DNA of 25,248 nucleotides from a virus (Duplodnaviria > Heunggongvirae > Uroviricota > Caudoviricetes). The position numbers were made by a program, and so were the translations under genes. This document shows, in pieces, positions 1 through 16,287 of the stretch (the first letter of the stretch is position 1; every line of letters begins with the position of its first letter). Under the pieces are notes generated by a model, which saw only the letters and a program-made list of their open reading frames with translations, did not search any database and was not told where the DNA came from. Location of the stretch: positions 1-25,248 of the IMG/VR virus record IMGVR_UViG_2700989400_000006; one strand, written 5' to 3'.

Positions 1-1344
1 TGCACCATTCCGGCGGGTATAGGTTTTATTGATGGCCTCATCCACACGCAGCAGCGTCTGTTCATCGTCGTGGCGACCCATAATAATCTGCCGGTCAATC
101 AGCCAACTTTCCTCACCCGGCCCCCATCCCCATACGCGCATTTCGTAGCGGTCCAGCTGGGAGTCGATACCGGCGGTCAGGTAAGCCACACGGTCAGGAA
201 CGGGCGCTGAATAATGCTCTTTCCGCTCTGCCATCACTTCAGCATCCGGACGTTCGCCAATTTTCGCCTCCCACGTCTCACCGAGCGTGGTGTTTACGAA
301 GGTTTTACGTTTTCCCGTATCCCCTTTCGTTTTCATCCAGTCTTTGACAATCTGCACCCAAGTGGTGAACGGGCTGTACGCCGTCCAGATGTGAAAGGTC
401 ACGCTGTCCGGCGGCTCAATCTCTTCACCGGATGACGAAAACCAGAGAATGCCATCACGGGTCCAGATCCCGGTCTTTTCGCAGATATAACGGGCATCAG
501 TAAAGTCCAGCTCCTGCTGACGGATGACGCAGGCATTATGCTCGCAGAGATAAAACACGCTGGAGGGATCATCCGGCGTCCATTTGAGGCCAAACGGCGT
601 CTCTTTATCGCCAAATTTAAGGTACTGCTCCTCCCCGCAGTGCGGGCAGGCAACATGAAAACGCATAAAATGCGGGGATTCACTGGCTGCACGCTCAATC
701 TGGCAGGTGCCTCTCACTTTGGGGGTGGAGCCACGGATGGACTTTGGCCAGACCGAGCCTTCAATACGTTTGTCGCCAAGGAACGTCGGAGAGCCTTCCT
801 GTTCAATATCCTCATCAAAGGCAGCAAGTTCATCATAACCCGCCACATCCACCGACTTTTCACGGTAGTTTTTTGCCGCTTTACCGCCCAGGCACCAGAA
901 GCCACGACCATTGGAAAAACGCTTCATGGTGAGCGTGTTATCCCGGTGCTTTTTGCCATACCACGGAGCCAGCGCCAGCAGCAACGGAATATCGCGGATG
1001 GTCGGCTCAACGTGGGTTTTCATAAAGTTCTCGGCATCACCATCCGTCGGCAACCAGATAAGTGTGTTGCGCTGCTTATGCTCTATGAAGTAGGCATAAA
1101 CACCCAACAGCATTTTGGAATAACCAACACGGGCAGACTTCACCACATTCACCTCGCGGATGTAGTCGCTGCCCATCGCATTCATGATGGCCCGCTGAAA
1201 GGGCAGTGTTTCCCAGCGCCCTTCCTGGTATGCGGATTCTTTCGGGAGATAGTAATTAGCATCCGCCCATTCAACGGGGGTCATTGGCAATGGTCTTTTC
1301 AGGACTGAGAGACCCGCCTTCACTGCCAATACGAAATTATTCAT
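1..1344 (-). CDS. Terminase large subunit (lambda gpA-like), N-terminal 448 codons; 3' end runs off the window start
   Basis: Reverse-strand frame opens with ATG at 1344-1342 and is open to position 1. Translation (MNNFVLAVKAGLSVLKRPLPMTPVEWADANYYLPKESAYQEGRWETLPFQRAIMNAMGSDYIREVNVVKSARVGYSKML...NKTYTRRNGA) matches my recollection of lambda gpA almost residue for residue after the first ~20 aa. Missing from the ORF track because no stop lies in the window. The listed plus ORF 538..1308 is its antisense shadow. Confidence 0.9.
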   Translation of the reverse strand, partial: MNNFVLAVKAGLSVLKRPLPMTPVEWADANYYLPKESAYQEGRWETLPFQRAIMNAMGSDYIREVNVVKSARVGYSKMLLGVYAYFIEHKQRNTLIWLPTDGDAENFMKTHVEPTIRDIPLLLALAPWYGKKHRDNTLTMKRFSNGRGFWCLGGKAAKNYREKSVDVAGYDELAAFDEDIEQEGSPTFLGDKRIEGSVWPKSIRGSTPKVRGTCQIERAASESPHFMRFHVACPHCGEEQYLKFGDKETPFGLKWTPDDPSSVFYLCEHNACVIRQQELDFTDARYICEKTGIWTRDGILWFSSSGEEIEPPDSVTFHIWTAYSPFTTWVQIVKDWMKTKGDTGKRKTFVNTTLGETWEAKIGERPDAEVMAERKEHYSAPVPDRVAYLTAGIDSQLDRYEMRVWGWGPGEESWLIDRQIIMGRHDDEQTLLRVDEAINKTYTRRNGA

Positions 1345-1867
1345 CTGTATTTCTGTAATACTCATCCGCAAATTCCTTCATTTTTTCAGCGGACTCAACG
1401 CATTTATTAGCCCCCTTCGCAACCAGCTCTTTTAGATAAGCCAATTGTCTGCCTGTCAATTCAGGGAATTTTCTTTGCATCGAAAGCGGAATACTGTCCA
1501 AAACAGATGCCAGTTCTCCGGATAACCGGGACAGGGCAAAAATAGAGAAAGCTGTATCAATCACCTTATGCTCTGCAACCTGGTTTTTTAACCGCTGAGC
1601 AATAGCCTGTTCTTCCGTCAGGTTAACCCTGGCCTGAAGTAGCCTTTCCTCAAGATCATTTTCACCACCTGAAGATTTCTGGTTTTGTTGACGTCGCTCG
1701 CGATCTATCTCCAGTACAGTTTTAACGTCATAGAAAACCTCTCTCCCCCGGCGCTCAACAGGAGGAACACCCCATTTATCAAATGCCTGTACTGAGATAC
1801 CGATGGAGGAGGCCATGTCGCTTTTATTCAATAAAAAGGCCACAGCCCCTCCATAAACCACCGGCAA
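1337..1867 (-). CDS. Terminase small subunit (Nu1-like)
   Basis: 176-aa ORF immediately downstream of cos on the phage strand, stop overlapping the large-subunit ATG (ATGA). C-terminal two thirds (VIDTAFSIFALSRLSGELASVLDSIPLSMQRKFPELTG) resemble lambda Nu1 (VVETAFCTFVLSRIAGEIASILDGLPLSVQRRFPELEN); N-terminus looks like the Nu1 winged-HTH. Exact start codon uncertain. Confidence 0.7.
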   Translation of the reverse strand: MPVVYGGAVAFLLNKSDMASSIGISVQAFDKWGVPPVERRGREVFYDVKTVLEIDRERRQQNQKSSGGENDLEERLLQARVNLTEEQAIAQRLKNQVAEHKVIDTAFSIFALSRLSGELASVLDSIPLSMQRKFPELTGRQLAYLKELVAKGANKCVESAEKMKEFADEYYRNTDE

Positions 1868-2048
1868 AAAAGCAATACAACAACCACGTTTTTTGTAAAA
1901 CCCTCTGATTTTACATGCTTTTTCGTATAAGAAAGATCATCAGGTTGTTGTGTTTATTTTTCTTTCTTATTACTTATCAAGTAGATATATCAAACGATAA
2001 AACAACAACCATCACCTCAAAAAAACTCGTAAATAGCGAAAACCCGCG

Positions 2049-2060
2049 AGGTCGCCGCCC
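2049..2060 (-). other. cosN cohesive-end sequence (12-nt, lambda-type) within a cos region spanning roughly 1868-2110
   Basis: Plus strand 2021-2060 is the reverse complement of GGGCGGCGACCTCGCGGGTTTTCGCTATTT, which I recall as the left end of the lambda genome; 2049-2060 = AGGTCGCCGCCC is the complement of the 12-nt cohesive end. The flank at 2061-2100 (CGGATCACCGGAAAGGACCCG) resembles the lambda right-end/cosQ side. Confidence 0.8.
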
Positions 2061-2236
2061 CGTAGCCTGCCGGATCACCGGAAAGGACCCGCAAAACCGA
2101 GAATAAGTATCAATACTATTTGTGATTTGAATGATGCACATCATTGAAACGCCATTCATCCATATACCAGCAGCAGTCGGTGTTGCACTTCGTAACTCTG
2201 TGACTACGGTTATAAAAGCATTGGCAACTTTTGCCA

Positions 2237-2274
2237 CCGGCAAGTCTTCAATGGATTTCCCCTGCCGGTTTTTT
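2237..2274 (+). terminator. Hairpin followed by T-run (CCGGCA...TGCCGG then TTTTTTATTTT)
   Basis: 6-bp stem with a ~20-nt loop followed by T6; seen on the plus strand only. Confidence 0.35.
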
Positions 2275-2370
2275 ATTTTCGTCGATGCATAACATTGCAT
2301 TTACATCAATAGCAGCTATTGTCATTAGTATGTTGCATCGATGCATGGGTGGTATTGGCGGTCTTCGCCG

Positions 2371-2405
2371 ACCGGTTCTGTGTAGCTCCCTATGACCGGT
2401 TTTTT
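2371..2405 (+). terminator. Hairpin followed by T-run (ACCGGT...ACCGGT then TTTTTATTT)
   Basis: Two copies of the palindromic hexamer ACCGGT separated by 18 nt, followed by T5; the CCGGTTTTTTATTT unit is a direct repeat of 2262-2276. Confidence 0.35.
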
Positions 2406-2620
2406 ATTTCTAAGATTACAGAAGCCCTTCACTGTATGAAGGGCTTATGTAACTCTTCTTACTTAGTAATTTTCGCACCTTCCGGTATTTCCATGAGTTG
2501 AGAAAACCTCATACTATCCGACAATAATCATCAATATACGATAAAGACATCTGACCAGATTGCAGTATTAAAAGCACTCATGCAGACTACGCCCCTCATA
2601 TCATATACAAGGGGATACTG

Positions 2621-3031
2621 ATGGCTCAGGTTGCCATTTTTAAAGAAATATTTGATCAAGTGCGGAAAGATTTAAACTGTGACCGGTTTTACTCTGAACT
2701 AAAACGCCACAATGTCTCACATTACATTTACTATTTAGCCACAGGTAATATTCACATTGTATTTGAGAGCGATAACACGGTGTTAATAAAAGGTTTCCAT
2801 GATGTTATTCATGTTAGCTTTTGCAGAGACACGCGACTTATAGAAACTTACCTTCATAAGTTGAAATCAAGAGAAATCACATTTCATGAATACAGGGTAA
2901 ATCTGGCTAAAGCTGGAGTTTTCCGATGGGTTACAAATATCCACGAACACAAAAGATATTACTATACCTTTGACAACTCATTATTGTTTACCGAAAGCAT
3001 CCAGAACACGACTCAAATTTTTCCACGCTAA
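2621..3031 (+). CDS. Hypothetical moron protein, YbcV-like (DUF1398-type as I recall)
   Basis: 136-aa ORF on the strand opposite the late genes, AT-rich, located between cos and bor as ybcV is in E. coli DLP12 (from memory). Confidence 0.5.
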
Positions 3032-3255
3032 ACCATAACGTCCGGTTTGATCCGCCTCAGTAGCCGGCACTCCCACACAGGAGTTACCAGTCGGTGCTGT
3101 GGCCATAGTTAATCTGGGTATACAGTAAAGATACAGCACATCTGGCATACTTTAATAAACATTAACAATATGAGATTTCAACTCATTGTTTAGGTTTTGT
3201 TTAAATTTCCACAAATACGATGCACCAAACTTAAAAACACAACGGGAATCACACG

Positions 3256-3549
3256 ATGAAAAAAACGCTACTCACTTTCACACTGGCGCTGCTTATCTCT
3301 GGATGTGCTCAACAGACGTTTACAGTTGAAAACAAACCTACAACAGTAACACCGAAGGAAACCATCACTCATCATTTCTTCGTTTCAGGAATTGGTCAGA
3401 AGAAAACTGTCGATGCAGCCAAAATTTGTGGTGGCGCAGATAAAGTTGTTAAAACTGAAACCCAGCAAACATTCGTAAATGGATTGCTCGGTTTTATTAC
3501 TTTAGGCATTTATACTCCGCTTGAAGCTCGGGTCTATTGCTCACAATAA
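3256..3549 (+). CDS. bor: Bor lipoprotein (serum-resistance, Iss family)
   Basis: 97-aa ORF MKKTLLTFTLALLISGCAQQTFTVENKP...ITLGIYTPLEARVYCSQ with lipobox LISGC; near-identical to my recollection of lambda Bor; transcribed opposite to the late operon as in lambda. Confidence 0.9.
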   Translation: MKKTLLTFTLALLISGCAQQTFTVENKPTTVTPKETITHHFFVSGIGQKKTVDAAKICGGADKVVKTETQQTFVNGLLGFITLGIYTPLEARVYCSQ

Positions 3550-3558
3550 TTACATGCG

Positions 3559-3586
3559 CTGCCCATCAATATGGGCAGTTTTATTT
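3559..3586 (+). terminator. Intrinsic terminator downstream of bor
   Basis: Perfect 8-bp stem CTGCCCAT/ATGGGCAG with 4-nt loop CAAT followed by TTTTATTT, 10 nt after the bor stop. Confidence 0.65.
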
Positions 3587-3631
3587 ACACTGTTAACCCC
3601 TTGGTTGTTTCAGCCGCCGGGGTTTTACTTG

Positions 3632-3880
3632 TTATTCACTGGTATGAGTACGACATCTGGCCATTTCATTCCGGGCTTTACTGTCGCCGCGACAGATGCA
3701 ACGCATCGTATCGCCGTTCAGCGTAGTGATATAAGCCTCATCCGTTTTCTCTACCTGCAAACATGAAATATTCCCGTTCCGGCAATACTCAATTTTTGCT
3801 GCCAGATGGGTATTACGCGGGTAAAACTCCATACGATACATATCCCCCCAGGACATGCACTTCCTCAACCTGACGACCAT
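3632..3880 (-). CDS. Hypothetical protein (82 aa) downstream of the endolysin; coding status uncertain
   Basis: ORF from the track; no transmembrane segment or lipobox, so not a recognisable spanin. An alternative 33-codon ORF (3813-3914) with a GGAGG Shine-Dalgarno overlaps in another frame. Confidence 0.3.
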   Translation of the reverse strand: MVVRLRKCMSWGDMYRMEFYPRNTHLAAKIEYCRNGNISCLQVEKTDEAYITTLNGDTMRCICRGDSKARNEMARCRTHTSE

Positions 3881-3946
3881 CTTCAGTTACCGTAATCTTT
3901 TTCAGTGCGTACATACGTACCTCCGTTCTTTCGTTTTTTGAACAAT

Positions 3947-3967
3947 AAAAAAGCCACCGAAGTGACC
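3947..3967 (-). terminator. Putative intrinsic terminator after the endolysin gene (minus strand)
   Basis: Minus-strand RNA would read GGUCAC-UUCG-GUGGCU (6-bp stem with two G.U pairs, UUCG tetraloop) followed by UUUUUUAUU. The same stem on the plus strand would carry A-C mismatches, so it is strand-specific. Confidence 0.45.
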
Positions 3968-3979
3968 TTTTCGATGAGT

Positions 3980-4534
3980 TTATAAACCAACGCGCTCTTT
4001 CATCCAGCCATAGACAAACGACTCGTTAGCCTCGCGTTTCTCGGCCAGCGCCAGATAACGCTCACCCTGCGTACAGTTCAGGGCTTTCACCAGTACCAGT
4101 TCGCCATCCCTGCCGCGATTTTTCAGATAAGAACGTAACGCATTAATGGTTCGCGGCCCGATCCCCCCGTCTGTAACTATGTCCGGATACAGCATTCCCT
4201 TCTGATTAAACACATTCAGCCAGCGCTGAAGCATTTTTGTGGCTACCGACGGCCCCATGTTTACCCCGGTATCACACAGTTCTGCAGCAATATCAGGAGA
4301 CAGGTTTGCCACCTGGTCAAAACGAGGTCCATACCAATAGTCTGCCTCAAGGATTTCCAGAGCCTGCCCGCGGCTCAAATCACGCATATCACCACGGTAA
4401 CCATGCGCGCGCGCCACTTTTTCAGTAATTCCCCACTTCGTCGCTCCGCCTGTATCGTCAGGATGACTGACATACCCCCCCTCTTTTCCGAGGATTTCAT
4501 CAAAAATTTCATCTCTCGATTTCATATCAGCCAC
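3980..4534 (-). CDS. Endolysin, glycoside hydrolase family 108-like with C-terminal peptidoglycan-binding domain
   Basis: 184-aa ORF; N-terminal motif EILGKEGGYVSHPDDTGGATKWGIT is the GH108 signature as I recall it; no N-terminal hydrophobic (SAR) segment; start overlaps the stop of the upstream membrane-protein gene. Confidence 0.8.
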   Translation of the reverse strand: MADMKSRDEIFDEILGKEGGYVSHPDDTGGATKWGITEKVARAHGYRGDMRDLSRGQALEILEADYWYGPRFDQVANLSPDIAAELCDTGVNMGPSVATKMLQRWLNVFNQKGMLYPDIVTDGGIGPRTINALRSYLKNRGRDGELVLVKALNCTQGERYLALAEKREANESFVYGWMKERVGL

Positions 4535-4805
4535 TCAGGAAAGCAAAAATTTTTGAAACATTACCGCGCGCACGCACTACCATGACACCAAACACCAGGT
4601 TCAGCATCACTACCAGCCAGTCTGCCGGCAACGGATGACCACAGAGATAACTTAACGGCGTTATCGCATACAACAGCATCAGACACCAGGCGCACCACGA
4701 TATCAGCGGTTTGTGTCGGGACTCTTTTCTGCGGTAGAAAAAAAGCGTCAGTACGATAACCGTACATAACGCCGCATTCAGTAATCCTGGAAGATTATTT
4801 GTCAT
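4527..4805 (-). CDS. Lysis-cassette membrane protein (holin/antiholin-like)
   Basis: Start chosen at ATG 4805 (MTNNLPGLLNAALCTVIVLTLFFYRRK...) preceded by GGAGGAGG; the track start 4823 is GTG. Two to three predicted hydrophobic helices; 8-nt overlap with the endolysin start. Confidence 0.5.
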   Translation of the reverse strand: MTNNLPGLLNAALCTVIVLTLFFYRRKESRHKPLISWCAWCLMLLYAITPLSYLCGHPLPADWLVVMLNLVFGVMVVRARGNVSKIFAFLSG

Positions 4806-5187
4806 TACCACCACCTCCTCCACGCTGACGGGAGAACAGACCGGATACCAGTGATGTAATCTCCTGCTGGTGGATGAATGACAGGACTTTTACTGAGAGC
4901 ACCGACACCAGGACCGCACACAACGCATCAACGGAAGCACTGTTAAACCCAATACGTTCCGCCATGTAACCGGCCACACCACGGGCCCCAAGCACACCAA
5001 CAATAAAGGACACCAGAAAATGTGCAGCCACACGCCAGGCTGAAAGTGTCTGCGGCATTGTTGCCACAAATAACGCACCAGCGAACGCACCAAATACAAT
5101 CCCGAAATCCGTCCCGGTAAACAGCCCGAATACCGTCGCCCCGCCGAGCGCCACAGCAGTGCCGGAACCGGATAAGGGTTCAGACAT
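4795..5187 (-). CDS. Holin-like membrane protein (Gly/Ala-rich, ~131 aa)
   Basis: Start chosen at ATG 5187 (MSEPLSGSG...) with AGGAGA 6 nt upstream rather than the track start 5217; several Gly/Ala-rich hydrophobic segments; sits at the head of the endolysin module. Confidence 0.55.
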   Translation of the reverse strand: MSEPLSGSGTAVALGGATVFGLFTGTDFGIVFGAFAGALFVATMPQTLSAWRVAAHFLVSFIVGVLGARGVAGYMAERIGFNSASVDALCAVLVSVLSVKVLSFIHQQEITSLVSGLFSRQRGGGGGNDK

Positions 5188-5272
5188 ATTTATTCTCCTG
5201 TAAATAAAAAGGACCATCAGCGGCCCTAAAAAACTTTATCAAAGGTACCCGCAGATACCTTTTGTAGGCTGT

Positions 5273-5425
5273 TTATTCAGATTTGCGAAGTAAAGGCCAG
5301 AGTAAGACCGTTACCATCGCCACCAGCACACCATCAGCCAGTACCGACATCAGCCATCCAGTGAAATCCACTGCCACTACCAGAAACAACAGGATGGCAG
5401 CCAGCACAAGGCCCGCACTTTTCAC
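5273..5425 (-). CDS. Small hydrophobic peptide (50 aa), possible membrane peptide of the lysis module
   Basis: GTG start overlapping the TGA stop of the TerB-like gene (GTGA); translation VKSAGLVLAAILLFLVVAVDFTGWLMSVLADGVLVAMVTVLLWPLLRKSE is almost entirely hydrophobic. Below the ORF-track size cut-off. Confidence 0.3.
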   Translation of the reverse strand: MKSAGLVLAAILLFLVVAVDFTGWLMSVLADGVLVAMVTVLLWPLLRKSE

Positions 5426-5847
5426 AGATACTGCTCCAGTGGTAACTGAAGCGCCTGTGCAATTTTCTTGAGCTGCGCTTCTTCATCCGGACCAATGCCA
5501 TCCTGATCAGCGATATCCAGACAGAGGCAAAGCACGTCAACCGCCTCAGTTGTCCCCGCCACATCAGCCAGCTCACGCAATGCATGCGCATTCGCACTAC
5601 GCGGTGACGCTTCATAACGGGCGCGGATATTGGCGCTCATCTGGGCAATCTCACCAGAGAACGGTGCAAAAGCAGGAAGCGCAGCAATAGTTTTCTCCAG
5701 TACTGCGATTTCTTTCGCATCGCAGGTGCCGTCGGCATATGCAATGGAATATGCGCCCCAGACGGTCGCCTCCACCGCATCACGGTTCTCCATCTTCTTC
5801 ACTTCTGTGATGGCCTTGCGGGTTTTCTTTTTGAAAATACCTAACAT
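5422..5847 (-). CDS. TerB-like (tellurite-resistance TerB fold) protein
   Basis: 141-aa ORF; C-terminal DIADQDGIGPDEEAQLKKIAQALQLP resembles the acidic helix motif of TerB-family proteins as I recall them. Confidence 0.55.
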   Translation of the reverse strand: MLGIFKKKTRKAITEVKKMENRDAVEATVWGAYSIAYADGTCDAKEIAVLEKTIAALPAFAPFSGEIAQMSANIRARYEASPRSANAHALRELADVAGTTEAVDVLCLCLDIADQDGIGPDEEAQLKKIAQALQLPLEQYL

Positions 5848-5981
5848 CGTGACTTTTCCTTTGCGTAGACGAGCCTGCGCCAGATGGTTACCAGTCCACA
5901 GTGAAAGTCACACTGACAATCCCGTAAGCACCTCCTGAAAGGCTCTGTGTTTTTGATGTGCGCCAGGTGTGGCTCAGATAC

Positions 5982-6005
5982 AAAAAAAGCTCGCCGTAGC
6001 GAGCT
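5982..6005 (-). terminator. Intrinsic terminator (minus strand) after the 92-aa gene
   Basis: Minus-strand RNA: AGCUCGC-UACG-GCGAGCU (perfect 7-bp stem) followed by UUUUUU; 24 nt downstream of the stop at 6029. Confidence 0.6.
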
Positions 6006-6028
6006 AACAGAAAATATGAAGCATGTTT

Positions 6029-6307
6029 TTATCCACGAAGTATGACGTTGAATTCATCCATACCGACACGGCTGGCTATCTCGTTGTATTCCTCAACAAG
6101 AGCCAGCAATTCTGAATTAGCAGCCATGAACTCTTCAAAAACCTTATGGATGGCATCACTGTTTAATAAAACAATGTTCTTTCCTGAAAGGCGATCAGGG
6201 GTAGAAAATATAACTGTCAAACGACTAAAGGCCCTGGCTCGTTCAGCATTAACATCCTCAATACGCTGCAACAAGCTGGAGCACCTGGAAATATCATCAA
6301 TATTCAC
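6029..6307 (-). CDS. Hypothetical protein (92 aa)
   Basis: ORF from the track, co-oriented with the late operon and followed by a strong intrinsic terminator; no recognisable motif. Confidence 0.5.
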   Translation of the reverse strand: MNIDDISRCSSLLQRIEDVNAERARAFSRLTVIFSTPDRLSGKNIVLLNSDAIHKVFEEFMAANSELLALVEEYNEIASRVGMDEFNVILRG

Positions 6308-6827
6308 TCTACTCCTGTCATCTGGATGATAATCATTTCACGGAGAGAAGCACTCAGAAGTACCACTGAAGTATAACTGGTGACCAGCTGCTTACACATC
6401 TGTTGCCATCCTGCTGATGATAAGTCGATATTAACCCTTCTGTCTATAAACGAAACAAAGGATAAGTTCAGGTTTTAAACACACTGCCAGGATAAAGTAT
6501 TGTATACAGTATAGAAGAGCGTTATTGAATGACATAAAAAACCAGACCTAATCCCTTATCCGGAAGATATATCAAATAAACGGGGAAAATGTATTAAGAT
6601 GGCGTTCCTATTCTCTCCATCCCTGATGTCCACGTAACTCGTTATAGAATCAGAACGCCATCTGAATACACAGAAAAAAAGCTGGCTTCACACCCTCCTG
6701 CATGTGTGAACGCAGTGCCCGACCACGTGCTTTCGCAACCAGCGAAAATCAGTTTTAAATACCGAAAAACGATAAGAATATATCAGAACTTCCAAGCATC
6801 CTGCTTGGCTTAGATATTAATCGAGGA

Positions 6828-7913
6828 TTAGCTCCTGTTCTTATCTAATTGTGCATTTCGCAATTTATCGTTCAGCACCAATATTTCACCAACTGTTTGT
6901 TCAAAACGCCCGGACTCAAGTTCAACCCCAATCGTGCGACGCCCCAATCCCATTGCTGCTTTTATTGTTGCCCCCGATCCCATAAAAAAATCCGCAACCA
7001 CATCCCCCGGACGACTGCTGGCAGAAATTATCTGACGCAACATATCCGCCGGTTTTTCGCAGGGATGCTTACCCGGATAATACTGTACGGGCTTATGCGT
7101 CCAGACATCCGTATAAGGAACGGCGGCCGATACAGAAAAATAACGCCGCAGAGATTTGTATTCCTCAAGCAGACTGGCATATTGCCGGTTCAGTTCACTG
7201 TATGTGCTGACCAGCAGTTGGTGTGGCGTTGCCAGCTCCCCACGCTGGTGTTTTTCTTCTGCAACACGCGCGAACAGCGCCTGCAGTTTTCTGTAATCAG
7301 CTTCGTTCGGTAACTGCCACTGACTGGTACCAAACCAGTGCGACACCATGTTTTTCTTTCCGGTGGCTTCCGCTATCTGTTTGGACGTTATTCCCAGTGA
7401 TTCACGCGCATCACGAAAGTAAAAAATCAGCGGGGCCATGACGTGTTGTTTAAGCTCGCGCTCCTTTGCCGCATAGCCGGCATTTTTTGGCTGATATGGC
7501 CACTGATAATGTTCGGCAAACAGAATGCGCTCTGTTGCCGGGAAATACGCCCGCAGGCTTTCTTTGTTGCACCCGTTCCAGCGTCCGGACGGCTTCGCCC
7601 AGATAATGTGGTTCAGCACATTAAAGCGCTCACGCATCATGATTTCGATATCAGATGCCAGGCGATGACCACAAAACAGGTAAAGACTTCCGGCAGGCTT
7701 CAGTACCCGCCAGAACTGAGCCAGACACTGGTCCAGCCATTTTAGGTAATCATCGTCGCCCTTCCACTGGTTATCCCAGCCCTCGGGCTTCACTTTAAAA
7801 TATGGCGGGTCTGTGACTATAAGATCGACAGAGTTTTCCGATAAGGTCTGGATAAATTCCAGGCAATCAGTGTTGATTAACTCACAACTGGATATTTTTA
7901 CAGTATTAGCCAT
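6828..7913 (-). CDS. DNA methyltransferase, N6-adenine/N4-cytosine class
   Basis: 361-aa ORF with the catalytic DPPY motif (LIVTDPPYF) near the N-terminus and a glycine-rich AdoMet-binding motif near the C-terminus (FFMGSGAT); this order is typical of the N6_N4 methyltransferase family. Confidence 0.9.
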   Translation of the reverse strand: MANTVKISSCELINTDCLEFIQTLSENSVDLIVTDPPYFKVKPEGWDNQWKGDDDYLKWLDQCLAQFWRVLKPAGSLYLFCGHRLASDIEIMMRERFNVLNHIIWAKPSGRWNGCNKESLRAYFPATERILFAEHYQWPYQPKNAGYAAKERELKQHVMAPLIFYFRDARESLGITSKQIAEATGKKNMVSHWFGTSQWQLPNEADYRKLQALFARVAEEKHQRGELATPHQLLVSTYSELNRQYASLLEEYKSLRRYFSVSAAVPYTDVWTHKPVQYYPGKHPCEKPADMLRQIISASSRPGDVVADFFMGSGATIKAAMGLGRRTIGVELESGRFEQTVGEILVLNDKLRNAQLDKNRS

Positions 7914-8063
7914 AGATCAATAAGCACTTCTCTGATAGGCTCATACCGCTTTTGCGCAAAGCAGATGGGCCTGAGGTTTGCTTGTGACCTCAACACATGA
8001 GCAGATGGCTGGCAGGTGCCGCTAACACCCACCAGCCGCCCATTACCACAAAGTAAAAAGCCT

Positions 8064-8261
8064 TCACTGCGGAAGGCGTCTGTAACAACCGAACTGATAA
8101 TCTGCCAGACCCGCCATCACAAGCTGGGTCAGTATTAACTGGCAGCGTTCGCGTGAAAGGTAAGTATTCTGCGCAATTTCCCCAACTGTTGCCGGTTCAG
8201 TGACGCTTAATTCATTAAACACCACTCTGGCTGTTTCGGTCATATCCTGCTGTTTTAGCAT
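8064..8261 (-). CDS. Hypothetical small protein (65 aa), possible winged-helix fold
   Basis: ORF from the track; the segment TVGEIAQNTYLSRERCQLILTQLVMAGL looks like a helix-turn-helix recognition unit. Weak evidence. Confidence 0.4.
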   Translation of the reverse strand: MLKQQDMTETARVVFNELSVTEPATVGEIAQNTYLSRERCQLILTQLVMAGLADYQFGCYRRLPQ

Positions 8262-12439: not shown

Positions 12440-12949
12440 AGATTGAGCCTCAGATTAATGTTAAACGTCTTGCAGGACGCGTAATGTTAACTGGGGCTTT
12501 TCTCTATCTGCCTTTGGTGTTCATGCCTGAGGCAGATAGCCTCAAGCACCCGCAGCAATTCTACTTAACTCCCGTCACCTCGCCAATATAAAATCAATCA
12601 GAAAGGCGATCCGTAAGAACAACAGCAAGACAATAAATTGCCATTACAGCCGCAATAGCTAGCGCACATTTGAGAACCAGCACGACAACCTCCTGTATTG
12701 GACGTACACCAATTCTGATAAATATGAGGCTGTCTCATCATTGATTCAATATAACTATTGGGTATAGTTTCTGTGATTTTGTTCTGTAGAAATGGAACAC
12801 AACAACCAGTCACCACCAGCACTTCTTTAAATACGCCAAGTCCGACGCAAGCTAACCTTCTAGTCCGCTTTGAGCGAAGAGCGGACATTGCTAACAGCAT
12901 CCTGTGTGAATCATTACGATCAAATCGATGACTAGATAAGTACAAACCG

Positions 12950-12978
12950 GAAAAGGGGCCTACTGACGAAGTAGGCCT
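12950..12978 (-). terminator. Intrinsic terminator of the three-gene cassette
   Basis: Minus-strand RNA: GGCCUACU-UCGUC-AGUAGGCC (perfect 8-bp stem) followed by CCUUUUCCGGUUU, starting 17 nt after the stop of the last cassette gene. Confidence 0.6.
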
Positions 12979-12994
12979 GAGTTCCTTATATATT

Positions 12995-13651
12995 TCACAA
13001 AATTCTGAGAGTTTCTAAGATGGATAAAAGTGTTGGAAGCTGACTCTCTCTCACACGGAATCTACCCGTCCTAGATAATTCCGTTTCAATTCCGTTAACG
13101 AAGAAATGTACGGAATCAAAAACGGCCGAACTATTCATGTATTTATTCTGATAAATTTCTTGGAGATTCTTTGAGCTTACTATTTTTGTCTTTGCTAAAG
13201 TAAAAGGATCAACAGAGATATTAGATAGAGACATGGATTTTATCTTGATGTCAAAGCCCTCAGAAAGACCATTTACAATTTTTCTCAGATCAAATTCTAC
13301 TGGTCTCAAGCCACTATCTTCACCAAATAGTTTTTGCACCATAGTATAAGGCACTTTCATACTTAATGGAGGATTAGTGGCATATAGTATGATTTTTTTC
13401 CCTTGTCTGACGCCAAAGTCCACATTTAAGTAAGTTGCTATTTCAACCTCTGAACGCTCGCCATTAGCATATTCTAAGCTTTGCTTGCTAATGCTTCTCA
13501 TGGTAAATCTTAGTTTAAGCACTTCAGAGTTATTAATGATTTGAAAACCATATCCTTTATCTTCATCATAGAGGTTGTCATTTACTTTATGTAATAACTC
13601 ACTTTTAGTTATATCCTTTTCTGCTTTATAAATTTTTACCTTTATCATCAT
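12995..13651 (-). CDS. Cassette gene C: uncharacterized protein (~218 aa), third gene of the AT-rich three-gene operon
   Basis: Start chosen at ATG 13651 (MMIKVKIYKAEKD...) with AGGAGG 6 nt upstream, overlapping the TGA of gene B as ATGA; the track start 13678 is TTG. No motif I recognise. Confidence 0.75.
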   Translation of the reverse strand: MMIKVKIYKAEKDITKSELLHKVNDNLYDEDKGYGFQIINNSEVLKLRFTMRSISKQSLEYANGERSEVEIATYLNVDFGVRQGKKIILYATNPPLSMKVPYTMVQKLFGEDSGLRPVEFDLRKIVNGLSEGFDIKIKSMSLSNISVDPFTLAKTKIVSSKNLQEIYQNKYMNSSAVFDSVHFFVNGIETELSRTGRFRVRESQLPTLLSILETLRIL

Positions 13652-14895
13652 CCAGCCTCCTGATTCAAAGTCTCGCAAGACATAGCTTTCGTTACTGGGT
13701 ATCGCTTGGTATGCTCTTCGATAATAAAGTCATTAATCAAAAATATTTTATCTTCTAATTGTTTCATGACTTGATCAAAGTCTGCGTCACTGAGTTTTTC
13801 TCTCTCTGCGGATGCAGAGTTGCTTTCTTTGTATAACGCTCTGAATTTTATATTTTTCCCAAGATATTTATCATCGAAACTAAGTTCAAAAGTTATAGTA
13901 TGATTCTTAACTACTGAGGAAAATGACTTCCATCGAATTAAGCTTCGATAAAACCCATCACTGCACAGTTCCTTAATTTGAGGTGCGTTCACTAATGATA
14001 GGCCATCATACGCGGCATTGTTAATGTTAAAAGTTAGGTTTTCATCATCGTCAGATGCCATTTCCTGATTATTAATGTCATCATCATTTTCGTTATCTGT
14101 AGAAGGTGAAATCTTGTTTAATAACTCTTGTGTTTCTTCGTTATTATTTCCTTCGAGATTATCTCCATTAATATCCAGAGATGTTTTTATTCTGCTTACT
14201 CTAACCTTTTCAAGACCAGCATATTCAAGTCCTGTTTTTTTATAATTTCCATCAAAATCATAAAGATGAACAGCAAAAATATTCCTAAGATCTGTATCAA
14301 CGATACTTGATAAATCTATTTCGTTGACAACTATGTTGTTACAAACTGTTGATGAATATGTATCAATTATTTGCTTGAGAATTTCTGAAATGCGTGGCGT
14401 ATAGTTATATCTTACTGAAACATATCCTTTTTTTACTATAAAAACTATACTCCCACTGTACAATTTTTTCTGCTGAAACTTACCCCTTCTAAAATCAAAC
14501 TCAGTATAATCAATAGATATATGATAGGTTTGCAAGCCTGAGTAATGATCAATTTTCTCATGCCCTAGCAACTTGGGTCTATTTTCTTTCACTTTGTTTA
14601 CAACGTCATAGAGTTTCTCTATATCAAATTCTTCATATATACGTTTTACTGAGAAGACGTCTTGGCTGGGTTTGGTTGCCAGTTTATCTTGTACTTCTCT
14701 GATGTGATTATATGAAAATGGCAGGTCTGATAATTTTTCTATCAATACCTCTTTTGATAAGTTAGATGGGAAAATTATCCCTCTATTGAAGGCGATTTTC
14801 CTTAATGTAACATCTGTGATTTTTGCACTGTTAGAGTGGAGGGCGGTATAAATGTCACTTTCGTTTGAAAACAACGTAGCTTGATATTTATTCAT
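13648..14895 (-). CDS. Cassette gene B: uncharacterized protein (415 aa) with a central acidic low-complexity linker
   Basis: ATG 14895 lies 10 nt after the gene A stop with AGGAG in between. Residues ~240-285 (NNNEETQELLNKISPSTDNENDDDINNQEMASDDDENL) form an Asn/Asp/Glu-rich linker between two halves. No Walker A/B or other motif I recognise. Confidence 0.8.
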   Translation of the reverse strand: MNKYQATLFSNESDIYTALHSNSAKITDVTLRKIAFNRGIIFPSNLSKEVLIEKLSDLPFSYNHIREVQDKLATKPSQDVFSVKRIYEEFDIEKLYDVVNKVKENRPKLLGHEKIDHYSGLQTYHISIDYTEFDFRRGKFQQKKLYSGSIVFIVKKGYVSVRYNYTPRISEILKQIIDTYSSTVCNNIVVNEIDLSSIVDTDLRNIFAVHLYDFDGNYKKTGLEYAGLEKVRVSRIKTSLDINGDNLEGNNNEETQELLNKISPSTDNENDDDINNQEMASDDDENLTFNINNAAYDGLSLVNAPQIKELCSDGFYRSLIRWKSFSSVVKNHTITFELSFDDKYLGKNIKFRALYKESNSASAEREKLSDADFDQVMKQLEDKIFLINDFIIEEHTKRYPVTKAMSCETLNQEAG

Positions 14896-14905
14896 GTCAT
14901 ACTCC

Positions 14906-15997
14906 TTATGAAAAGTGACATTTTCTATTCACCTGCTTGCTGGCAACCTGGTACTCAAATATAGATAGCTTTTGATTAACAAAAGGAATGGATACTATTT
15001 TTTCCTTTAACGTTTCTATATGAGATTGAGTGAAAGAATATATTCCTATGTAATCATTAATGGCGGATTGCAAATGAATGCTTGAGTGTGATGAGAACGG
15101 AGTTATAACAAATATTTTGTTAAATTGATTGAGTAATTGATAGTTAAATATATACTCTAAAAGAAATATAAAGTGGTTACTGGAATCAATCTCTTCCTTC
15201 CAGAATATATTCAATATTTTATTTCTTATTCTATCGCCACCATCATTTCTAATATATTCGTGTTCATATGAGTAAAAAATCATCCCAGATGTTATCATTT
15301 CAATTGTGGCTGGAAGGATTTTCCCTTTCGTTGCTATTTTATTATGTTTGTCAGGGTAAAAATATGTACAGTTCTCTATCTCAGGAATTTTTTGCCATAA
15401 CATATTTGTTTCTTGTGTTACTTTGTCAGTAATTCCTCTTCTAGTCTCGATGTGTTCTGTAACATCTAGTAAAAATCTGATCATAGTTGGGTCAAAAACG
15501 GCAATCACAGAGTTCTCTGGAAAATCATAACTTGCTGTGGCTGCTCCATTTAATTTCTCAATTAAATCAGAGTCATATTTATTGTCATGATTATATATAA
15601 AAAGTAGGCCGTTAACTTGATATTTCTCATTTGTGCTGTCAACAAATAGACGCCGCCACTCAGGACTTCTTGGCGCGCAAGCTACCTGTTGTGATAAACT
15701 TCGTACAGTGTTCAATATTGATTTTGTACCGTCAAGCGTGCTGGCACAATAAGATTTTAAATCTGTTTGTATATACTGAGTTATATCTGAATAAGGATCT
15801 TTATATTTGAAGACTACATCCGTAGGATGAGTTTTTTTTGGGTTTTCAGATAAAAGTTGTTTAGCGTTTAGATGAGATCTCAAACAACAGTCCCAACTTA
15901 TATCCGTTGTATTTTGGGTTTTCCAGCCTAACTCATCAAAAATTCTACTGGAAATGATACCTGCAATCTCATCAATATTCTTAGTTTCGCCGCCCAC
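14906..15997 (-). CDS. Cassette gene A: uncharacterized protein (363 aa), first gene of the operon
   Basis: GTG start at 15997 preceded by GGAGGA; no in-frame ATG upstream. The N-terminal ~90 aa carry a pattern compatible with, but not diagnostic of, a PD-(D/E)xK nuclease core (FDE ... HPTDVVF ... IQTDLK). Confidence 0.7.
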   Translation of the reverse strand: MGGETKNIDEIAGIISSRIFDELGWKTQNTTDISWDCCLRSHLNAKQLLSENPKKTHPTDVVFKYKDPYSDITQYIQTDLKSYCASTLDGTKSILNTVRSLSQQVACAPRSPEWRRLFVDSTNEKYQVNGLLFIYNHDNKYDSDLIEKLNGAATASYDFPENSVIAVFDPTMIRFLLDVTEHIETRRGITDKVTQETNMLWQKIPEIENCTYFYPDKHNKIATKGKILPATIEMITSGMIFYSYEHEYIRNDGGDRIRNKILNIFWKEEIDSSNHFIFLLEYIFNYQLLNQFNKIFVITPFSSHSSIHLQSAINDYIGIYSFTQSHIETLKEKIVSIPFVNQKLSIFEYQVASKQVNRKCHFS

Positions 15998-16287
15998 GCT
16001 TCCTCCATAGTTCGTTGTTTTATCTAGTGAAGATCTGATTCATGGTTTTCCAAGCCCATGCGCAAAACAATTAATCAAGTAAGAATAATCTTAATCAATT
16101 TAATCTTTTTTATTTGAATCATCAAGAGCCCCATTACTGATAGGCATCAGTTGGTGGTATCTCTGCTCAAGCTTCAGTAAAATCTGGTTTGCTACTTCCG
16201 CTCCTGGCACAAAGCGGACAACCGCGCTAGCTCTACCCTGTGCCACAAAATGTCAATTTGCATCTGAACTAATGCACTTTAATCTCG

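Follow-up and report, generated by a model that had tools for sequence, protein, structure and literature searches.

The DNA analysed here, called the window below, comprises 25,248 nucleotides (positions 1 to 25,248 of the IMG/VR virus record IMGVR_UViG_2700989400_000006; Caudoviricetes) and is a lambdoid prophage next to rspB/ynfA, with genes that RefSeq names rzpQ, rrrQ, nohA, ydfT, ydfU, hokD and dicB. This gene set matches that of the Qin prophage of Escherichia coli K-12, in which relBE adjoins hokD at the position of the cargo slot described below. Just downstream of the prophage replication genes lies a cassette of three co-oriented genes, A, B and C, of which gene A comes first (Table 1). 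Judged by matches to existing models, gene A is Hp1 of 3HP, a three-gene anti-phage system that is already catalogued, genes B and C are its Hp2 and Hp3, and the N-terminal part of gene A is predicted to be a PD-(D/E)xK nuclease.

The identification rests on three adjacent genes that match, in the same order, the PADLOC models for Hp1 (PDLC03004, 7.6e-41), Hp2 (PDLC03005, 9.6e-11) and Hp3 (PDLC03006, 4.2e-11), and that sit, like other 3HP systems, on a mobile phage-associated element; PHROGs 7059, 6531 and 5850 match genes A, B and C, and trios of other phages fall in the same PHROGs. The enterobacterial/Vibrio clade differs from the seeds of the 3HP models, in that its Hp2 and Hp3 match them only at about 1e-10 to 1e-11 and its Hp2 is 30-40 amino acids longer, with an acidic insert. 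We regard the cassette, from these matches, as a divergent enterobacterial/Vibrio member of the catalogued defence system, carried here by a Qin-like lambdoid prophage and not by a satellite. The name 3HP occurs as that of a mostly prophage-borne defence system in papers by users of PADLOC and DefenseFinder; one survey places its mechanism under "unknown", and no published mechanism was found in the searched literature. The system is said to have been found first in phage-inducible chromosomal islands, where the founding system reportedly gave anti-phage protection.

For the nuclease itself, the family records of homologues place Hp1 in the Pfam family PF26115 (PDDEXK_GAPS4), which is precomputed for all 72 gene A homologues, including one that is 99% identical (P0001), the match being unmarked (E <= 1e-5) for P0064, P0069 and P0072. 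Several homologues bear the UniRef name "GAPS4 PD-(D/E)XK nuclease domain-containing protein", and in one RefSeq genome PGAP names the gene A copy, WP_001625141.1, "PD-(D/E)XK nuclease domain-containing protein". Because the Pfam family, the PGAP name and the PADLOC models exist already, the assignment of gene A, though right, reveals nothing that is new in kind. A local Pfam scan of gene A gave no match, the scanned copy lacking the PF26115 model, and since proteins with a recorded PF26115 also score nothing there, this blank is not a true negative. NCBIfam gave no match for any of the three proteins, and PDB sequence searches with gene A alone and with profiles of A, B and C returned nothing meaningful.

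A sequence-only reading of this DNA had proposed the nuclease core from an acidic helix (IFDELGW) followed by HPTD-VVF and, 21 residues on, IQTDLK, with the caution that the pattern was short and could be chance. Its positions and spacing are as described (IFDELGW at residues 19-25, HPTD at 57-60, VVF at 61-63 and IQTDLK at 76-81, with 21 residues from D60 to K81), and the caution was well placed: among shuffled gene A proteins, 46% show a loose D..(D/E)xK pattern within their first 120 residues, and 9% a stricter E..hD..h(D/E)xK pattern, with the Glu and the hydrophobic context. The bare pattern is therefore not beyond chance, and the motif is significant only because it is conserved among homologues and a nuclease fold is predicted.

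Homologues of gene A reach down to 26% identity among those of a word-indexed search (the 72 mentioned above), and 582 were retrieved by a profile from 1.84 billion cluster representatives. In an alignment of 215 full-length members, from which all conservation counts for Hp1 are taken, every sequence carries H57, D60, K81 and C107; D79 and S82 are each present in 213 and P58 in 211, and N136, D138, C37 and W25 are nearly invariant. The helix glutamate of IFDELGW, E22, is conserved in only 76 of the 215, while E4, which lies where this helix begins, is found in 203/203 sequences ungapped at its column, residues 1-4 being modelled at low confidence (predicted local distance difference test, pLDDT, <50). 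From the alignment, the conserved helix acid appears to be E4, not E22; an acidic residue on helix 1 occurs in many PD-(D/E)xK nucleases, though not in all.

An AlphaFold2 (AF2) model of Hp1 built from 40 sequences (mean pLDDT 83.2; predicted template modelling score 0.84) has at its N-terminus a canonical restriction-endonuclease-like alpha-beta-beta-beta-alpha-beta core, made up of alpha1 (residues 3-22), beta1 (26-36), beta2 (56-66), beta3 (73-83), alpha2 (91-110) and beta4 (126-136). As in the PD-(D/E)xK superfamily, an Asp (D60) lies on the second strand and the (D/E)xK motif (D79, K81) on the third. The two outcomes that the sequence-only reading had named as fatal to it, a predicted fold lacking such a core and candidate catalytic residues that are not conserved among homologues, did not occur, E22 apart, and the nuclease proposal is supported by fold and conservation together. 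We conclude from the model that residues ~1-140 are a predicted PD-(D/E)xK nuclease domain whose catalytic set is D60/D79-x-K81, alongside the invariant H57 and the conserved E4. No PDB entry matched the Hp1 model at E <= 1e-3 in Foldseek; of the weaker hits, the most credible were nuclease domains. In the same domain C37, the near-invariant H42, H57 (also part of HPxD) and C107 (window 15677-15888) might form a structural metal site.

The C-terminal domain, which has no fold match in the PDB by Foldseek, is possibly a docking domain for Hp2/Hp3. It had been described as rich in Ile, Phe, Tyr and Asn, and half of this holds: residues 151-363 (213 amino acids) hold more Ile (13.1% against 7.3%) and Phe (7.5% against 2.7%) than the N-terminal part, which fits the 32% GC of the island, and show no enrichment in Tyr or Asn. 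The GTG start of gene A (15995-15997, minus strand), with its closely spaced GGAGGA, had been read correctly as well, since homologues share the N-terminus MGGETKNI or MAETKNI.

The three genes are tightly coupled in one operon, and the trio has been kept together among its relatives. Only 10 nucleotides, with an AAGGAG site before gene B, separate gene A from gene B, and the start of gene C overlaps the stop of gene B; a promoter and terminator scan of the cassette gave nothing above shuffled background. A mechanical open reading frame call for gene C (12995-13678) had used a TTG start nine codons too far upstream; homologues of Hp3 (214-216 amino acids) and RefSeq support the ATG at 13651. 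Of 83 genome loci searched with iterated hidden Markov models of A, B and C, 78 keep the A-B-C order, with genes adjacent or overlapping; 54 of 60 IMG/VR viral contigs have the trio as well, so that it is kept in 132 of 143 loci. The genome loci cover Proteobacteria, Verrucomicrobia, Acidobacteria, Myxococcota, Desulfobacterota, Armatimonadetes and others. Nearly all exceptions lie at contig ends, and only one locus (L005) is clearly A-B without C; in this metagenome-assembled genome of Kiritimatiellae (1-8110), genes for a PLD-helicase and an MmeI/Eco57I-type methyltransferase lie immediately upstream of the Hp1-Hp2 pair, in what looks like a defence island.

Neither Hp2 nor Hp3 has a Pfam or a PDB sequence match, Pfam scans of diverse members of both gave no consistent family, and profile-profile comparisons of Hp2 with Hp3 and of Hp1 with Hp3 showed no relationship. 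A HeH/LEM domain in Hp2 was considered and dropped as unsupported (a single member at E 0.15). In their family alignments hardly a residue is invariant in either protein, and no motif looks catalytic. The model of Hp2 has the RdgC fold, with centre and base domains, a likeness at the level of the fold only, at 7% identity and on a model with a pLDDT of 76. The acidic linker of Hp2 (window 14038-14175) is long, disordered, strongly acidic and rich in Asp, Glu and Asn in the enterobacterial/Vibrio clade, whereas some distant homologues have a reduced linker or none; it might act as a DNA mimic or serve autoinhibition. For Hp3, the homologue in Pseudomonas phage 54-4 was named "RdgC-like exonuclease" by its depositor, which hints at an RdgC-type fold in Hp3 as in Hp2.

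Table 1. Features of the 3HP cassette and its slot (window coordinates; aa, amino acids; nt, nucleotides)
Feature	Position	Strand	Basis
Gene A, Hp1 of 3HP, 363 aa; predicted PD-(D/E)xK nuclease plus C-terminal domain	14906..15997	-	
Ribosome-binding site GGAGGA, 3 nt before the gene A GTG	16001..16006	-	Read from sequence
N-terminal predicted nuclease domain of Hp1, residues ~1-140	15578..15997	-	AF2 model elements
Codon D60 (HPTD), candidate metal-binding Asp on beta2	15818..15820	-	Invariant 215/215; equivalent GAPS4a Asp essential for defence
Codons D79-L80-K81, (D/E)xK motif on beta3	15755..15763	-	D79 213/215, K81 215/215
C-terminal domain of Hp1, residues ~150-363, confidently modelled	14909..15550	-	No known fold match
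Gene B, Hp2, 415 aa; N-terminal four-helix domain, RdgC-like fold in the model, disordered acidic linker (residues 241-286)	13648..14895	-	
Gene C, Hp3, 218 aa; ATG start at 13651 overlapping the gene B stop (ATGA)	12995..13651	-	PADLOC PDLC03006, RefSeq coordinates, homologue length, sequence
Low-GC (~32%) cargo slot, bounded by the hokD side and by the DUF977 gene	12912..16196	.	Composition profile; flanks common to L086
Left arm of imperfect 46-nt inverted repeat (hairpin), slot border	12850..12895	.	Repeat search, 72% complementary
Right arm of the same 46-nt inverted repeat, other slot border	16187..16232	.	Repeat search

The site that the cassette occupies, between the DUF977 gene and hokD, reads from comparison of sequences as an exchangeable cargo site. 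In a sister E. coli prophage (L086, 1913-4080) the flanks are 96-98% identical and the same slot holds an unrelated two-gene cargo, encoding a 320-amino-acid protein with a HEPN-like RNHLVH motif and a 333-amino-acid protein with a GNAT-like C-terminus; a check of this cargo for GAPS4 was negative, the two genes appearing to be a HEPN-like and a GNAT-like one. Each arm of the inverted repeat at the slot borders holds a GTCCGCT...AGCGGAC hairpin, and the repeats may serve as terminators or as hot spots at which cargo is exchanged by recombination. The complete cassette is present in 11 of 5,426 complete E. coli genomes, and its flanks in thousands; in E. coli 30COLEC the cassette region is interrupted by the IS30-family element ISApl1. 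A nucleotide search of a phage collection gave no match, relatives of the cassette being found at the protein level: in temperate phages of Klebsiella and Vibrio, in siphovirus-type prophages and on plasmids. Since Hp1 occurs at ~96% amino-acid identity on Enterobacter, Klebsiella and Citrobacter plasmids of 50-150 kb, the cassette appears to move between prophages and plasmids (or phage-plasmids). A full Hp1-Hp2-Hp3 trio is also the cargo of Pseudomonas phage 54-4 (OR621021; L147, 485-3252), a Pf-like filamentous phage of 13 kb (Tubulavirales).

The relative that has been studied by experiment is GAPS4. Its subunit GAPS4a carries the PD-(D/E)xK motif HGxD...SxK at the N-terminus and needs the Asp of this motif, D59, for defence, it forms an a2b2 complex with GAPS4b, the dimer of which is predicted to be a ring, and the system degrades host and phage DNA upon DNA breaks, such as those caused by nalidixic acid or a type VI secretion system DNase (Mahata et al., bioRxiv 10.1101/2025.09.07.674715, 10.1101/2023.03.28.534373). 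The nuclease subunits of the two systems share PF26115, and their motifs lie near the same position (D59 in GAPS4a, D60 in Hp1), the preceding His included; a ring is likewise expected of the RdgC-like Hp2, this ring-like form being the one point of contact between Hp2 and GAPS4b. The systems differ in architecture, GAPS4 having two genes (or one fused gene) and 3HP three, and in the motif itself, which in Hp1 is HPxD...DxK (P58 in 211/215 and D79 in 213/215), and the DNA-break trigger has been shown for GAPS4 only. On its sequence, the cassette is not a GAPS4 system in the strict sense. RdgC is a ring-forming protein, a toroidal dimer with a basic central hole in which it binds double-stranded DNA without sequence specificity. 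To RdgC and the other dimeric DNA binders, lambda RexA and Iml3-Chl4, Hp2 has no detectable sequence similarity (7% identity; no profile match in PDB sequences), it differs from RdgC by an extra N-terminal helical domain and the disordered acidic linker, and its likeness is that of a monomer model. In Hachiman (HamA/HamB) and Shedu, too, PD-(D/E)xK effectors are licensed by the sensing of DNA damage or DNA ends; these differ from the 3HP trio, which has no sequence relationship to them and no helicase or ATPase, so that its sensor would be a passive clamp-like protein.

Membership of Hp1 in the GAPS4 nuclease family, together with the RdgC ring fold of the Hp2 model, leads to a testable model in which a DNA clamp or sensor would license a non-specific DNase. 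We hypothesize, with a probability of roughly 0.7, that gene A encodes the effector nuclease of a 3HP operon which is low-GC cargo of a Qin-like lambdoid E. coli prophage, and which acts with a DNA clamp or sensor to abort infection. Hp2, perhaps with Hp3, would form the clamp-like sensor, which would keep Hp1 inactive by way of the C-terminal domain of Hp1; aberrant DNA arising in infection (free ends, breaks or replication intermediates) would be sensed, and Hp1, once released, would degrade DNA non-specifically and so abort the infection, the prophage gaining from the exclusion of superinfecting phages. Complex formation, trigger, non-specific cleavage and abortive outcome are all steps that we infer by analogy with the two-gene GAPS4.

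Several points weigh against this hypothesis. The cassette is known here through sequence and models, protection and cleavage being predicted; what is reported of anti-phage activity (Fillol-Salom et al. 2022, in Cell) concerns the founding 3HP system. The similarity of Hp2 to RdgC is confined to the fold of a moderately confident model, from which the ring and the complex are extrapolated, homology of Hp2 to GAPS4b is conjectural, and Hp3 has no fold assignable from this analysis. The HPxD...DxK motif and the obligatory third gene are unlike GAPS4, and 3HP regulation may therefore differ from that of GAPS4.

Non-specific destruction of DNA is also not the only way in which such a trio might defend its host. 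It is unlikely, in our view, that 3HP is a direct, non-abortive and restriction-like system, in which Hp1 would cut only phage DNA, which Hp2/Hp3 would recognise by its sequence, by a modification or by way of a phage protein, leaving the host alive: in none of ~130 loci does the operon contain a methyltransferase or other self-protection gene, the scarcity of invariant residues in Hp2 and Hp3 hints neither at enzymes nor at the recognition of specific sequences, and the related GAPS4 degrades the DNA of host and phage alike. The recombination-associated nature of RdgC, and the proximity of the cassette to the prophage replication genes, would also suit a phage accessory module for recombination or replication, with an RdgC-like RecA modulator and a nuclease working on the phage's own DNA and no part in defence. 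We give this little credence, as the cassette occupies a variable low-GC cargo slot that unrelated gene pairs fill in sister prophages, as the same trio also occurs on chromosomes and plasmids and in siphovirus-type prophages and filamentous phages, whose replication systems are unrelated, and as it matches the models of a system catalogued as anti-phage defence.

It would be more surprising still if the PD-(D/E)xK domain of Hp1 were no DNase at all, being an inert DNA-binding module or an RNase, with the toxic effector elsewhere in the trio. The full catalytic triad is invariant across the Hp1 family, which argues for catalysis, Hp2 and Hp3 have no catalytic-looking conserved residues, and GAPS4 needs its motif Asp and degrades DNA; we hold this explanation to be very improbable. 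The hypothesis of an abortive effector nuclease acting with a clamp or sensor is the one that we prefer.

Tentatively, and with more doubt than belief, the hypothesis can be taken further: 3HP might be a three-component relative of GAPS4 in which Hp2 and Hp3 both have the RdgC fold and form a hetero-ring or horseshoe-shaped DNA clamp like Iml3-Chl4, loading at DNA ends or breaks and licensing Hp1. If this is true, RdgC, lambda RexA, GAPS4 and 3HP would be connected through a broader class of DNA-integrity sensors, of the type "RdgC-clamp plus PD-(D/E)xK". As hypotheses, the RdgC-like fold of Hp2 and the mechanistic link between 3HP and GAPS4 may be new, the searched papers making no mention of them. 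For the prophage, the cassette would be a further case of defence cargo carried in an exchangeable slot.
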